Shown here: positions 1-60,175 of the stretch, one piece after another
Layout of the letters: each line of letters starts with the position of its first letter
How positions within the stretch are numbered: position 1 is the stretch's first letter
Assembly (NCBI GenBank): GCA_027021705.1
Contig: JALUTT010000170.1
Location: forward strand, 2,429-66,428
DNA: 64,000 nt
Reading direction: 5' to 3'
Source: Anaerolineae bacterium
Lineage (GTDB): Bacteria; Chloroflexota; Anaerolineae; S140-20
Translations under genes and position numbers: made by a program
The notes under the pieces: model-generated
Database searches by the model: none
Told to the model about the DNA's origin: nothing
Seen by the model: the letters and a program-made list of their open reading frames with translations, nothing else

Positions 1-286
1 AGCCGGGTCTTCTAGCAGGCGGGCCCAAGCTGTGATCCGTTGGGAGGGGACGAAGGGGACCAGGAGGGGTTGCAGCAGCCACAGTGCATGGGCTCCCAGG
101 AACCCCAGCCCTCGCCCCACCTCCCGCAGGAGAGGGAACATACTTCCCAGGCCAGCGCGGTGCAGCCGGGCCAGCCCTGAAGCAAGCTCACGTTCAGCCC
201 CCGCCAGGGGATCCCTTTTCCTTCCCACGATAGTATACCACAATCCGTCCCCATTCCCAATGGGGAAATCGGTCCTGGGTATCTGT

Positions 287-395
287 TCAGCCTACCCTCC
301 CACAGGTCACCGGTCGAGGGCGCTTTCAGCCCCGATGGGCTATTTGAAGCACGGTTTCGCGTCGGAAACGCGCCTAACCTGCGGGAGGGTGAACA
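287..395. repeat. copy 1 of roughly 120-bp MITE/REP-like element with terminal inverted repeats
   Basis: Near-identical to 29825-29935 and to the reverse complements of 37727-37852 and 48625-48745. Terminal inverted repeats ACCCTCCC(A/G)CAGGT / ACCTGCGGGAGGGT. Confidence 0.85.
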
Positions 396-612
396 CGGTC
401 CTGGTAGAAATGTTGGCCCTCTACTGGGCCGTTCTGTGCTCAGTATAGCACGAATTGGCCGGGGAGTAAAGGGAGTTCGTGGACGACTGATTCCCTATCC
501 CCAAGATATGGGCAATCACCAAAGTGGGACGTGTTGCGCGTTGCATATTGTGCTCCACCGGCACAGCCCGGAAGCGCCGGTGCTGGGGCAGCCTTCGCCC
601 GGTTCCGCCGCT

Positions 613-5600: not shown

Positions 5601-6910
5601 GCCGGGCCCTGGAGATCGCCGATCGCCTGGAGGGAGACATCCGAGAGGAGCGGCTGATCGCCTGGGAAGGGCTGGGCGACGTGCTCTCCGTCGTGGGGGA
5701 ATACGAGGAAGCGCTCCGCTACTACACCGAGGCCAGGACGACGTTGGAGGCTGCTGAACCCTCGGTGGCCCGGGACCGCCGGCTGGCCGACCTCTACCGA
5801 AAGATCGCCAGCGTCTACACAGCGATCAGCGATTACGAGACCGCCTTCGCCTGGCTGGAAAAAGGGCTCCGCCTGCCGGGTCTGGAGGGCCAAGTGGAGC
5901 AAGCCCGGCTCTACTTGGCTGGGGCCGGGGCCTACCACTTGCAAGGCAAAAACGACCAGGCTTTCACCTGGTGCCAGCAGGCGCTCCAGGTGGCCAAGCC
6001 CCTGAAAGGAAAGGCCGCCCAGCGGGAGATGGCCCATGCCCTCTACCTGCTGGGGGCCATCTCCAACCGCCTGGGGGAGAACCAGCAGGCCATCGCCTAC
6101 TGCGAGCAGAGCCTGGCCCTCTACGAGGCGCTGGAGGATGCCAACGGGATGGCCCAGGCCCACATCAACCTGGCCAGCTCCTTGGTGGAGATGGGGATAT
6201 GGTCCCAGGCTGCCCACCACTATCGGGAGGCGTTGAAGATCAAGCAACGTATCGGCGATGCCTTTGGACAGGGGCTCATCGCCAACAACCTGGGGGAGAT
6301 CCACCGGCTGCAAGGAGACCTGGACCAGGCGGAACGTTTCTACCGACAGAGTCTGGAGACGTGGGAGCGGCTGGGCTCCACCTATGGCATTGCTTTCCTG
6401 CACAACAATCTAGGCGCGGTCTATCACCGGCGCGGTGAACCCGAGAAGGCCCTGGCCTACTTCCAGAAGAGCCTGCGCCTGGCCGAGGAGATCGGTTCCG
6501 AGGATTTCCTGGCCGAGCTCTGCCGCAACCTGGCCTTGGTCCACTTGGAGATGGGCGAGATGGACCGGGCCTGGGACTGCGTTCAACGTTCTCTGGCAGT
6601 GGCGACGGAGCAAGGGATGCGGACCGAGGAGGGAATCACCCGGCGGGTGCTGGGGCAGGTGCTCTGGACCCAGGGGAAGCGACGGGAAGCCCAGGAAGCC
6701 TTGGCCGAGAGTGCTCGCTTGCTGGAGGAAGCGGACAGCCAATACGAACTGGGGCAGACATTGCTAACCTGGGCACACCTTCTGGTCTCAGAAGGGTCAG
6801 AAGCCCAGGCGATCCCCCTGGCCCGCCGGGCCTATCGTCTGTTGGAGAAGGTCGGTGCCCGTCAGGAGGCCCAGGAGGCCCGAGAACTGGCAGAAGGAGC
6901 GAGGGGATGA
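2693..6910 (+). CDS. signal-transduction protein: two tandem class III adenylate/guanylate cyclase domains, AAA ATPase (STAND-like) and C-terminal TPR repeats
   Basis: 1405 aa. Two cyclase-homology motifs (VMFADVSGFTAMSERF and VTVLFADLHGVERTVERMG). Walker A GGVGMGKSRF. Long TPR-like region (AIAHYRRALEIA..., repeated A..Y...L motifs). Confidence 0.8.
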   Translation: MPLSRRILNRMRRYLPRSWEEQLQPPLDQAVLVRCQAHLKALLEVVVTYLPRGLVQAQLDRPTPGRSQGQFREGTVMFADVSGFTAMSERFAQAADARAGAEEITEIVNRYFEAMIGIAQAYGGDLLKFGGDALLTFYTGPEAALRACQAALAMQETMDRQFAQVETSLGPFPLRMSIGLGSGEVFLASLGSVEGMEYAVMGPALAAMGEAESLAQAGMVILDRATWEAAGPAIEAHPTAAQGFYHLRRIRRSVPPQSSSQVTLLPPLDDPARAIHWLVTRLDALAPYLPDELLQRIRPDPRHIEPLDERRPVTVLFADLHGVERTVERMGRDQANILTDYLDTYFNELRAVVRQYGGVVNKIGAGPVGPHLMALFGAPRAHEDDPERAVRTALEMQGVVATLRERFPGLADRMGAIGINSGNVFAANVGSATRREYTVMGDEVNLAFRLMTTGQPGEVLVRQETTAQEVQHRFFLEPLPPVRVKGKAQPIAICRVTGLREIAPLSRDRGGPLVGRDAEMDQALQIVEKARQGEGQVLTITGGVGMGKSRFAEAVIAHCQERGVTVLSGTCLSYGREIPYLPWAAILRLLFGLREGEPPEVRRRKLSTALASARLEEWGAVIGEVVGVSLPESPLSASLDPRLRQQRFFDIALELLRRTASRRPLALLIEDVQWIDPASLALLNYVARNIARDPILLLIAQRPEGDLDRAWTRLPHHTEIVLGELSLPAIWQLVAALLETDRVPPAIEEAMWVLALGERPAPDSTLDTSALISYWGTPFFTEERVRALIEAGIWQRRPDGQWEVAVDVERVEFPETLQGIILSRIDRHPEPERRTLRVASVIGRIFAYLVLENVYPYGDQNGSLKERLDRLIDLGITLLSPDDPALTYIFRHAPVRDVAYESIPSRHRRTLHRLIGDFLEATGAGEEQPGLLAYHYYQGWDWEKALKYALEAGKLAQREYANDTAIAHYRRALEIADRLEGDIREERLIAWEGLGDVLSVVGEYEEALRYYTEARTTLEAAEPSVARDRRLADLYRKIASVYTAISDYETAFAWLEKGLRLPGLEGQVEQARLYLAGAGAYHLQGKNDQAFTWCQQALQVAKPLKGKAAQREMAHALYLLGAISNRLGENQQAIAYCEQSLALYEALEDANGMAQAHINLASSLVEMGIWSQAAHHYREALKIKQRIGDAFGQGLIANNLGEIHRLQGDLDQAERFYRQSLETWERLGSTYGIAFLHNNLGAVYHRRGEPEKALAYFQKSLRLAEEIGSEDFLAELCRNLALVHLEMGEMDRAWDCVQRSLAVATEQGMRTEEGITRRVLGQVLWTQGKRREAQEALAESARLLEEADSQYELGQTLLTWAHLLVSEGSEAQAIPLARRAYRLLEKVGARQEAQEARELAEGARG

Positions 6911-29576: not shown

Positions 29577-29824
29577 CGTTGAGGGGCCGGCTGGGTGGGG
29601 GATTCATACCACCTAAATTGGCCAATCTGGACCGGCTCCGTTATGTTGGACCTGATTATACCACACAACAGGGAGGGCTTCAACCCGCCATTGTGCGGAT
29701 TTTCTCTTACTCGAAAGGGTAGAAGGTGGTAAGGGAGGGCGGTGTGTGGTACAATATCGGGGACGTCGTTCCGGCGCGAGCGGACCTGCGGCCTTCTGGC
29801 CTATCTGCCGTCGGTCGTATCTAT

Positions 29825-29935
29825 TCAGCCTACCCTCCCGCAGGTCACCGGTCGAGGGCACTTTCAGCCCCGATGGGCTATTTGAAGCACGGTTTCGCGT
29901 CGGAAACGCGCCTAGCCTGCGGGAGGGTGACAGTT
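29825..29935. repeat. copy 2 of MITE/REP-like element (same orientation as copy 1), in the metG leader
   Basis: Direct sequence identity with copy 1 except for a few substitutions. Confidence 0.85.
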
Positions 29936-29986
29936 AGTCGGTCTGGCTGCCGTCGGTTTGTCTGCTGCTCACAAGGGGAGGAGAAG

Positions 29987-31768
29987 ATGGCGCGCAACAT
30001 CCTGGTGGCCGTTGCCTGGCCTTACGCTTCCGCCAACATCCACGTGGGAAACCTGGGGGGCGCTTACCTGCCGGCCGACATCTACGCCCGCTACCACCGA
30101 CTGGCCGGCGACCGGGTCCTGATGGTCTCCGGCTCCGACAGCCACGGCACCCCCATCACCGTGGCCGCCGACCGGGAGGGCGTGCACCCCCGCGATCTCT
30201 TCGAGCGCTACCACCGCCACTTCCTGGACCTCTTCGTGGCGATGGGGTTGAGCTACGACCTCTTCACCCACACCGACACGGAGAACCACCACCGGGTGGC
30301 CCAGGACATCTTCCTGCGGCTGCACGAGAACGGCTTCCTCCTGCGCAAGCGGGAGAAACAGCTCTATTCCACCACCGAGGGCCGCTTCCTGCCCGACCGC
30401 TACGTGGAGGGCACCTGCCCCTTCTGCGGCTACGAGCACGCCCGGGGCGACCAGTGCGAGCACTGCGGTCGGCTGATGGACCCCCTGGAGCTGATCAACC
30501 CCCGCAGCCGCATTGACGGCAGCACCCCCATCGTGCGGGAGACAGAGCACTTCTACCTCAATCTGCCCGCCTTCAGCGAGGCCCTCAAAGCCTGGCTCCA
30601 GGCCGGCAAGGCCCACTGGCGGCCCCAGGTCCTCAACTTCGCCCGCAACATGGTCGAGCAGGGGCTCCAGCCCCGCCCCATCACCCGCGATCTGGACTGG
30701 GGCATCCCGGTTCCCCTCCCCGGCTGGGAGGGCAAGTGCCTCTACGTTTGGTTCGAGGCGGTGATCGGCTACCTCTCCGCCTCCATCGAGTGGGCTCAAC
30801 ACCGGGGGACGCCCGAGGTCTGGAAGGATTGGTGGTACGACCCCGAGGCCCGCACCACCTACTTCATCGGCAAGGACAACATCGTCTTCCACGCCGTCAT
30901 CTGGCCGGCCCAACTGATGGGCACCGTCCGCCTCTACGAGGATGACCCCGACCGGCGTCTCAACCTCCCCTGGCACGTCCCGGCCAACGAGTTCGTCACC
31001 CTGGAGGGGCGGAAGATCTCCGGCAGCCGCAACTGGGCCATCTGGGTGGACGATTACCTGACCCGCTACGACCCCGACCCGCTGCGCTACTACCTGACGG
31101 CCAACGCGCCGGAGACGCGGGACACCGACTTCTCCTGGGCCGACTTCCTGCGCCGCAACAACGACGAACTGGTCGCCACCTGGGGCAACCTGGTCCACCG
31201 CACCCTCAACTTCGCCTACCGGAACTTCGAGGGGCGGATCCCCATCCCCGGCTTGATGGACCAGCGGGACGTGGAGCTGCTGGCGACCATAGACGTCGCC
31301 TTCAAGCCCATCGGCCGGCTCATCGAGGTCGCCCAGTTCAAGGCCGCCCTGAGCGAGGTGATGGCTCTGGCCCGCCAGGTCAACGCCTACTTGGACGAGA
31401 AGAGCCCCTGGTTCCAGATCAAGGAGGACCGGCAGGCGGCCGGCACGACCATCTACGTGGCATTGCGGGCCATTGATTCCCTCAAGGTCCTCTTCTCTCC
31501 CTTCCTCCCCTTCTCCAGCCAGCGGCTCCACGAGATGCTGGGTTATGAGGGGACCATCATCGGCGAGCAGCGGATCGAACTCTACCGGGAGCGGGAGCGG
31601 ACCCACCTGGCCCTGACCTACGACGGCAGCCGGTTGGCGGCGTCGTGGAAGGCCAGCGAACTGCCGGCCGGTCAGCCCCTGGCCAAGCCCAAGCCCCTCT
31701 TCAAGAAGCTGGACGAGTCCATCGTTGAGGAAGAGTTGGCCCGGCTGCGAGCCGGAAGTGCTGGGTAG
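29987..31768 (+). CDS. metG: methionyl-tRNA synthetase
   Basis: Class I aaRS HIGH-like motif (ANIHVGN). CPFCGY..CEHCG zinc knuckles. Anticodon-binding helical C-terminus. Good RBS ggggaggag upstream of the ATG at 29987. Confidence 0.85.
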   Translation: MARNILVAVAWPYASANIHVGNLGGAYLPADIYARYHRLAGDRVLMVSGSDSHGTPITVAADREGVHPRDLFERYHRHFLDLFVAMGLSYDLFTHTDTENHHRVAQDIFLRLHENGFLLRKREKQLYSTTEGRFLPDRYVEGTCPFCGYEHARGDQCEHCGRLMDPLELINPRSRIDGSTPIVRETEHFYLNLPAFSEALKAWLQAGKAHWRPQVLNFARNMVEQGLQPRPITRDLDWGIPVPLPGWEGKCLYVWFEAVIGYLSASIEWAQHRGTPEVWKDWWYDPEARTTYFIGKDNIVFHAVIWPAQLMGTVRLYEDDPDRRLNLPWHVPANEFVTLEGRKISGSRNWAIWVDDYLTRYDPDPLRYYLTANAPETRDTDFSWADFLRRNNDELVATWGNLVHRTLNFAYRNFEGRIPIPGLMDQRDVELLATIDVAFKPIGRLIEVAQFKAALSEVMALARQVNAYLDEKSPWFQIKEDRQAAGTTIYVALRAIDSLKVLFSPFLPFSSQRLHEMLGYEGTIIGEQRIELYRERERTHLALTYDGSRLAASWKASELPAGQPLAKPKPLFKKLDESIVEEELARLRAGSAG

Positions 31769-37717: not shown

Positions 37718-37726
37718 ATTCCCGGA

Positions 37727-37852
37727 GAGAGTAACTGTTCACCCTCCCGCAGGTTGGGCGCGTTTCCGATGAGAAACCGTGCTTCCAATAGCCCATCGGG
37801 GCTGAAAGCGCCCTCGACCGGTGACCTGCGGGAGGGTGGGCTGAATAGATAC
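37727..37852. repeat. copy 3 of MITE/REP-like element (inverted orientation)
   Basis: Reverse complement of copies 1 and 2. Intergenic between the PP2C phosphatase gene and the response regulator gene. Confidence 0.85.
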
Positions 37853-37863
37853 CGGGGGGAAAG

Positions 37864-48624: not shown

Positions 48625-48745
48625 AGTAACTGTTCACCCTCCCGCAGGTTAGGCGCGTTTTCGACGCGAAACCGTGCTTCCAATAGCCCATCGGGGCTGA
48701 AAGCGCCCTCGACCGGTGACCTGCGGGAGGGTGGGCTGGACAGCA
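48625..48745. repeat. copy 4 of MITE/REP-like element (inverted orientation)
   Basis: Reverse complement of copies 1 and 2. Immediately downstream of the anti-sigma factor gene. Confidence 0.85.
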
Positions 48746-48905
48746 GCCCGTTTTTAAAACGGACTGCTGTCAGGGGATTGAACGGAGAGGAGTGCTCCCG
48801 TAGAGGGCGATCCAGCCGGTCCGAATCCCCTTGGTCAGAATCCCCTTGATGGAGTACCAGTCCCTCCCCCCGGTGATGACCCATATCTTTGGAGATAGGG
48901 AGACG

Positions 48906-59778: not shown

Positions 59779-59852
59779 GCCGAGGTAGCTCAGCCTGGTA
59801 GAGCACTTGACTGAAAATCAAGGAGTCCCCAGTTCAAATCTGGGCCTCGGCA
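59779..59852 (+). tRNA. tRNA-Phe (GAA)
   Basis: Manual cloverleaf folding. Acceptor GCCGAGG/CCTCGGC. Anticodon loop CTGAAAA. T-loop GGTTCAAATCC. Confidence 0.8.
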
Positions 59853-59860
59853 TTGTGCCA

Positions 59861-59934
<74 letters not shown>

Positions 59935-59957
59935 TGATCTCCCTCCGGGGAGCCACT

Positions 59958-60028
59958 GGCGGCGTCGCCAAGGGGTAAGGCAAGGGTCTGCAAAACCCTC
60001 ATCGCCGGTTCGAATCCGGCCGCCGCCT
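59958..60028 (+). tRNA. tRNA-Cys (GCA)
   Basis: Acceptor GGCGGCG/CGCCGCC. Anticodon loop CTGCAAA. T-loop GGTTCGAATCC. Confidence 0.8.
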
Positions 60029-60093
60029 CTGAGGGAATGCAACGGGAGGGGTCAAGGCCGGTAGCGATTTGCTATCGGCTTTCGTTGTTGTGT

Positions 60094-60175
60094 GGGGCGG
60101 TGGCGGAACGGTAGACGCATCGGTCTTAAAAACCGAGGGGCTCGGCCCGTGTGGGTTCGAATCCCACCCGCCCTA
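60094..60175 (+). tRNA. tRNA-Leu (TAA), long variable arm
   Basis: D-arm TGGCGGAACGGTAGACGC. Anticodon loop CTTAAAA. Variable arm GGGGCTCGGCCCGTG. T-loop GGTTCGAATCC. The 5' end is approximate. Confidence 0.7.

Follow-up and report, generated by a model that had tools for sequence, protein, structure and literature searches.

The four repeats of about 120 bp in the window, by which we mean the whole 64-kb stretch of DNA analyzed, are very likely copies of a MITE with the ends of the ISBst12 group (IS66 family), presumably mobilized in trans by an ISBst12-type DDE transposase. A search of the window by nhmmer, using a profile made from the alignment of the four copies, finds exactly these four (E ~1e-41 each) and no others. 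The copies are 118-122 bp long and share 89.3-92.6% identity in pairwise comparison over the element, which makes the ">90% identity" of an earlier note on this DNA roughly right. The same note had placed two copies in each orientation and all four between genes, and this is borne out by the search, with copies 1 and 2 lying one way and copies 3 and 4 the other. Its four sites are likewise real, but their true bounds, as marked by termini and flanking duplications, are wider by a few bases:

279 to 396, plus strand: MITE copy 1, 118 bp; IRR-type end first; right terminus shortened (GAACA[GTTA]C); nhmmer E=1.3e-41
29817 to 29936, plus strand: MITE copy 2, 120 bp; IRR-type end first
37731 to 37852, minus strand: MITE copy 3, 122 bp; full termini on both sides, GTAACTGTTCA... 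from 37731 and ...TGAATAGATAC up to 37852
48626 to 48747, minus strand: MITE copy 4, 122 bp; IRL-type end intact; IRR-type end degenerate (GGGCTGGACAGCAGC), overlapping a separate hairpin

The element begins with GTAACTGTTCA... at one end and GTATCTATTCAGCCCA... at the other, and the long terminal inverted repeat described in the earlier note is real (GTAACTGTTCA-CCCTCCCGCAGGT versus GTATCTATTCAGCCCA-CCCTCCCGCAGGT). Copies 1 and 2 have each lost a little of the right terminus, and thus some copies may be immobile by now. The copies have no coding capacity, the ORFs that overlap them being long spurious frames running through from the flanks. Pfam searches of the flanking ORFs confirm the gene contexts that had been proposed (metG, PP2C/response regulator, anti-sigma, and the window edge), so that the four copies are dispersed beside genes unrelated to one another. 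Copy 1 lies near the window edge, ~220 nt downstream of an alpha/beta-hydrolase gene; it is flanked on the minus strand by promoter-like sites at window 232-260 and 442-470, which are similar to each other (TTGGGA/TTTACT-17-TATACT, each with an upstream TG). The ATG of metG (PF09334) at 29987 follows the end of copy 2 after 50 nt; the description of the copies as lying "inside 5' leaders" is not borne out, no promoter having been located for metG. Copy 3 occupies what was formerly a ~20-nt spacer between a GAF-SpoIIE/PP2C phosphatase gene (stop codon 37715-37717) and a receiver-domain response-regulator gene (start 37864/37867), and copy 4 follows a gene whose 923-aa product has a zf-HC2 (anti-sigma-type) finger. 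The hairpin at the degenerate end of copy 4 (CAGCAGCCCG-TTTTTAAAA-CGGACTGCTG, window 48741-48769) abuts and overlaps that end; its flanking T and A runs are confined to the loop region, and it was not called a terminator in the consensus scan.

Each copy also contains a pair of inner arms:

293 to 307, plus strand: inner arm of copy 1, TACCCTCCCACAGGT; partner at 377-391
29831 to 29845, plus strand: inner arm of copy 2; partner at 29915-29929
37740 to 37754, plus strand: inner arm of copy 3, CACCCTCCCGCAGGT; partner at 37824-37838
48635 to 48649, plus strand: inner arm of copy 4; partner at 48719-48733

The earlier note had made its reading depend on a family extending beyond the window, and related elements are present in more than 100 loci of about 30 Chloroflexota species. 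These were obtained by scanning a collection of species-representative genomes for two arm cores 55-85 nt apart, which gave at least 108 loci (cited below by L number and position); the loci were drawn by exact arm 11-mers, so that conservation of the arms is partly built into the sample. The matches listed are nearly all from Anaerolineae, Thermoflexia or other Chloroflexota MAGs, with ~31 different assemblies among the 80 titled loci and ~30 Chloroflexota species. The genes beside the related copies are of the ordinary housekeeping kind, with 171 Pfam families across 101 adjacent ORFs; among the families listed, none is a transposase and none recurs beyond generic domains. Arm-bearing units are in places tandem or directly abutting (L090:1-330, L041:6256-6445, L012:2356-2555, L037:3396-3484). 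The same pattern also matched an unrelated repeat of ~95-105 bp in Sphingomonadales (L022, L050, L052, L056, L062, L071, L074, L082, L097), each end of which is itself a hairpin (CCCCTCCCGCAGGCGGGAGGGG ... CCCCTCCCGCCTGCGGGAGGGG) in REP-like fashion. A single match to terminus plus arm in a viral contig falls inside a coding region and was set aside as a chance hit.

The earlier note reported no evident target-site duplication, and in this it was mistaken: the flanks match at 8 of 8 positions in copy 1, over 7 contiguous bases in copy 2 and at 6 of 8 positions in copy 3, while the 8-mers flanking copy 4 agree at 4 of 8 and give no convincing duplication. The repeats, to which no strand applies, are as follows:

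271 to 278: left target-site duplication of copy 1, GGTCCTGG, 8/8 identical to 397-404
397 to 404: right target-site duplication of copy 1, GGTCCTGG
29810 to 29816: left direct repeat of copy 2, GTCGGTC, 7 contiguous bases repeated at 29937-29943
29937 to 29943: right direct repeat of copy 2, GTCGGTC
37723 to 37730: left target-site duplication of copy 3, CGGAGAGA, 6/8 against 37853-37860
37853 to 37860: right target-site duplication of copy 3, CGGGGGGA; shares bases with the Shine-Dalgarno region of the response-regulator gene

The related copies show the same flanking repeats. Among 19 copies from other genomes with recognizable heads, eight have a perfect 8-bp duplication and 17 match at six or more of the eight positions, compared with an average of ~2/8 for the next 8 nt outward. 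Such copies are bounded by GTAACTGCTCA... and ...TGAGCAGTTAC, with perfect 8-bp repeats including CTTTCATT, GACAAATC, TACCTCAC and GATTCGAA. A perfect 8-nt direct repeat at symmetric flanking positions was found for 25 of 109 arm pairs, against 1.3% in controls in which the left and right flanks of different copies were paired.

An 8-bp duplication together with ends starting GTAA points to the IS66 family, whose inverted repeats are 20-30 bp long, begin with GTAAGCG and are accompanied by 8-bp repeats (PMC11946415). ISDge4 of Deinococcus geothermalis (IS66 family, ISBst12 group) encodes one transposase of 449 aa and has the terminal inverted repeats GTGACTACTCAGCA / GTAACTGCTCAGCA with an 8-bp direct repeat (PMC12898284), and its ends are nearly those of the heads of the window element and its relatives. 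An IS66-like IS on plasmid pHTA426 of Geobacillus kaustophilus, whose ORF matches DDE_Tnp_IS66 at 1.9e-64, terminates in GTAACTATTCAGCCCG / GTATCTATTCAGCCCA and is flanked by the duplication AACTCGTC. Of its two ends, the second is identical to that of window copy 3 (GTATCTATTCAGCCCA, 16/16), and the other end of the window element, GTAACTGTTCACCC, agrees with the first at 12 of 14 positions; a GTAAC / GTATC asymmetry between the two ends is common to both elements. The same heads, with 8/8 duplications, are found on plasmid-borne IS of Chlorohelix (Chloroflexota), Deinococcus and Acaryochloris. In all, 71 IS head pairs from plasmids, 80 metagenome loci and three long contigs begin with GTAACT(A/G)(C/T)TCAG, the IS that carry them being 1.45-1.7 kb long with inverted repeats of ~15-21 nt. 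Group-type inverted repeats starting with GTAA, which for the ISBst12 group read GTAACTNNTCAG, are present in the window element. The window element thus has in common with the ISBst12 group the terminal GTAACT(A/G)(C/T)TCAGCC and the 8-bp target-site duplication, on the strength of which we assign it as a MITE of that group. Unlike the ISBst12-group IS, it has no transposase gene and measures 120 bp rather than ~1.5-1.6 kb; its 15-bp inner arm pair is absent from every IS examined, and its arms reach further inward than typical ISBst12 inverted repeats (15-21 nt).

The search for an autonomous partner covered both the window and the related loci. With the pHTA426 transposase as query, tblastn detected no IS66-type transposase gene either in the window or in the 108 related loci listed, and no arm-bearing autonomous IS emerged among the 108 loci listed from solo arms or far-apart arm pairs, nor from all-against-all clustering of ORFs. 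Likewise, no ISBst12-type IS with CCCTCCCGCAGG arms occurs in 80 metagenome loci encoding relatives of ISBst12 transposases, or in three long contigs that encode near relatives of the Chlorohelix transposase. As no arm-bearing IS was found, we infer mobilization by an ISBst12-type transposase from the ends and the duplication length; the cognate transposase would be encoded elsewhere in the genome of this organism.

The following scheme can be proposed. The outermost 11-16 bp of the element are ISBst12-group terminal inverted repeats (GTAACTGTTCA... / GTATCTATTCAGCC...), inside which a 15-bp perfect inverted arm pair (ACCCTCCCGCAGGTT / AACCTGCGGGAGGGT) encloses an interior of ~70 nt. A single-ORF DDE transposase (DDE_Tnp_IS66) of ~450-490 aa, supplied from elsewhere in the genome, would mobilize the copies in trans by binding both ends, cutting them and inserting the element via an 8-bp staggered cut. 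A copy that is co-transcribed, as is probably the case for copy 3 within the phosphatase/response-regulator operon, would place a hairpin of -55 to -65 kcal/mol in the mRNA and could affect its stability or translation. Nothing indicates that the hairpin has been selected for such a role.

In an alternative reading, the element would be a structured non-coding or cis-regulatory RNA whose function lies in its fold, a terminal stem with two inner hairpins. Whichever strand is folded, each copy gives a long hairpin (-54 to -65 kcal/mol) that is far more stable than its shuffles (z = -3.7 to -5.6), and a candidate 6-bp inner helix beside one arm is paired in 82% of cells across 26 related copies, with many G-U pairs on one strand. 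We nonetheless consider this reading very improbable. The conserved hairpin with a variable loop, from which the earlier note had argued for selection on structure, comes down to a single copy with two substitutions in the loop, and the stem itself is substituted at one position in copy 4. In an alignment of 26 non-identical copies, oriented alike and drawn from four related subfamilies including that of the window, RNAalifold recovers only the 15-bp terminal stem, which is invariant, with a covariation term of -0.1 and 0 compensatory pairs. The changes in the inner helix are one-sided transitions, which keep the pairing, as a wobble, in 18 cells and break it in 12, and this helix does not clearly exceed its shuffle control. 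The stability of the 62 unrelated interior clusters scarcely exceeds that of shuffles (mean z -0.44). No Rfam match was obtained for the element either at gathering score over the window or at E up to 10 on copy 2; the gathering-score matches in the window are only four tRNAs, all elsewhere, clustered at window 59779-60175 on the plus strand. Both orientations relative to neighboring genes occur, and the target-site duplications show arrival by DNA transposition.

The duplications also bear on a REP/REPIN-like origin, in which two inverted REP sequences would be moved by a domesticated tyrosine transposase of the IS200/IS605 type (RAYT). REPINs consist of two conserved inverted short sequences around a variable spacer, an architecture that lasts over a whole clade, and the window element resembles this in its inverted 15-bp pair ~70 nt apart, its poorly conserved spacer and its clade-wide conservation. 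Single-strand transposition by a Y1 enzyme leaves no target-site duplication, however, and the copies have one, clear 8-bp duplications standing outside inverted repeats of the DDE type; the REP/RAYT reading is therefore unsupported. The element also differs from REPINs in that its arms are not self-palindromic and form no hairpins of their own, and among the Pfam families listed for the 101 flanking ORFs there is no transposase, of the Y1 type or any other, and no recurrent neighboring gene family. We regard this origin as extremely unlikely. Of the earlier suggestion of a MITE/REP-like element or structured RNA, it is thus the MITE that stands, given its 8-bp duplications and ISBst12-group termini, and the REP-like and RNA parts that fall. 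Two further candidates were set aside. An integron attC site would not be expected from copies dispersed beside housekeeping genes rather than in cassette arrays, with GTT/AAC boxes at the inner and not the outer end of the stem. A speculative scheme with a transposase promoter in the interior and the arms as a fold-back lock on a ribosome-binding site gained no support, no sigma-70-like site having been found in the copies.

The inner arms raise a separate question. The arms (ACCCTCCCGCAGGTT and its complement) are alike across ~30 Chloroflexota species among the matches listed, while the interiors they enclose are unrelated and fall into 62 clusters without detectable mutual similarity. Within the search range of 55-85 nt, interior length is 69-72 nt in 39 of the 62 clusters, with a minor group at 55-61 nt and none at 62-65 or 76-85 nt. 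Short forms with arms 7-24 nt apart were also noted (L017:2947-2977, L016:5433-5480, L075:1255-1290 and 6558-6605, L091:1967-1998), and some of these copies still have ISBst12-like heads. ISBst12 heads are found on both sides in 29 of 114 arm pairs and on one side in 17 of 114; many other arm pairs sit in different outer inverted repeats with duplication lengths of their own. Around the outer repeat TAGGGCTTTCTCAAAGT there are perfect 10-bp direct repeats in all three copies, suggestive of a MITE from a different IS family with the same core inside; the duplications are of 9-10 bp with CTACCTGACAGTTTG, 9 bp with GGGTGCATTTCAAATGAG and ~12 bp with TCACTACCCGACAT. ISBst12-type MITEs without arms, 108-169 bp long and with perfect 8-bp duplications, share contigs with arm-bearing copies, from which it follows that the arms are dispensable for mobilization by the ISBst12 transposase family. 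The loci concerned are these:

L003:2214-2360, L083:45-192 and L088:837-983: TAGGGCTTTCTCAAAGT shells of ~147 bp in the Anaerolineales MAG CAZSIG01, with repeats GTTCCATTAG, ACCCCTGCGG and ACTCCGTAAC
L025:1557-1700, L048:214-360, L027:5842-5995 and L108:448-586: further shells with CTACCTGACAGTTTG, GGGTGCATTTCAAATGAG or TCACTACCCGACAT termini and 9-12-bp flanking repeats
L008:5791-5959, L015:789-908, L030:5995-6137, L041:3936-4095 and L070:7276-7397: arm-less ISBst12-type MITEs

These observations suggest a reading in which the two arms, kept at a constant distance of ~70 nt, form a functional module that travels as a passenger in MITE shells of several (at least four) transposase families, serving either as a paired binding site for a clade-specific protein or as a hairpin that aids the spread or persistence of mini-transposons. 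The window copies would then be its version in an ISBst12 shell, and what is conserved would be the passenger and not the transposon ends. The recurrence of the same arms around unrelated interiors, the peaked interior length, the presence of the arms inside other outer repeats with other duplication lengths and the arm-less ISBst12-type MITEs in the same contigs all fit such a module, as does the base just outside the arm core, which changes in concert on both arms (ACCC/GGGT, AACC/GGTT, AGCC/GGCT, ATCC/GGAT). Part of the arm conservation comes from the selection of loci by exact arm 11-mers, however, and neither a protein partner nor a function was identified for the pair. Some copies show no break between the canonical ISBst12 repeat and the arm core (GTAACTGCTCAG-CCTCCCGCAGG in L007), and several true ISBst12 IS have ...CAGCCTCC at the arm position; the arms may therefore be no more than a long inner repeat that belonged to a single IS lineage before nesting and recombination shuffled it. 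On balance, we hold the passenger module to be possible but rather doubtful. Should the pair prove to have a function as a module, this would offer a new insight into why mini-transposons succeed in a bacterial clade. An arm-like hairpin (CCTCCCGCAGGG...CCCTGCGGGAGG) was also seen at L025:6988-7018, 37 nt past the end of an ORF and followed by TTTTTT, which looks like an intrinsic terminator.

Returning to the ISBst12-group MITE, its traits are familiar from other bacteria. MITEs have been defined and exemplified by elements including MITEPsy1 of P. syringae and MITEAba12 of Acinetobacter (PMC3189936). Like bacterial MITEs, the window element is short and non-coding, has IS-like inverted repeats and a target duplication of fixed length, is dispersed in intergenic DNA and can form a long hairpin when transcribed. 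In these traits the Correia elements of Neisseria and ERIC are also comparable. The parent IS family differs, being IS66/ISBst12 for the window element and IS5-like for MITEPsy1, and unlike the named MITEs the element has a Chloroflexota host and inner arms that many species have in common around an interior that has been replaced. The element is an ordinary kind of MITE, and what it leaves unexplained is the conserved inner stem that recurs in unrelated mini-transposons across Anaerolineae. The searchable literature yielded nothing relevant on the arm sequence or on MITEs in Anaerolineae, and no description of an IS66/ISBst12-derived MITE family widespread in Chloroflexota, which the present analysis adds. 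The MITE matters mainly for annotation, in that it explains the four ~120-bp repeats, and the strong hairpins inside a phosphatase/response-regulator operon and upstream of metG in an uncultured organism serve as an annotation warning.

Several insertions lie in or next to Shine-Dalgarno-like sequences upstream of start codons (L011, L016:1139-1230, L028, L054, L107 and window 37723-37860), with duplications such as CTCCTTGG, TACCTCAC and CGGAGAGA; this could reflect a target preference or be the mere result of short intergenic spacers. In another Chloroflexota MAG, an arm-bearing MITE (L017:833-923) lies just upstream of a metG ortholog (L017:1087-2907) whose protein is 54% identical. Its orientation is opposite to that of window copy 2, and the insertion is thus probably independent.
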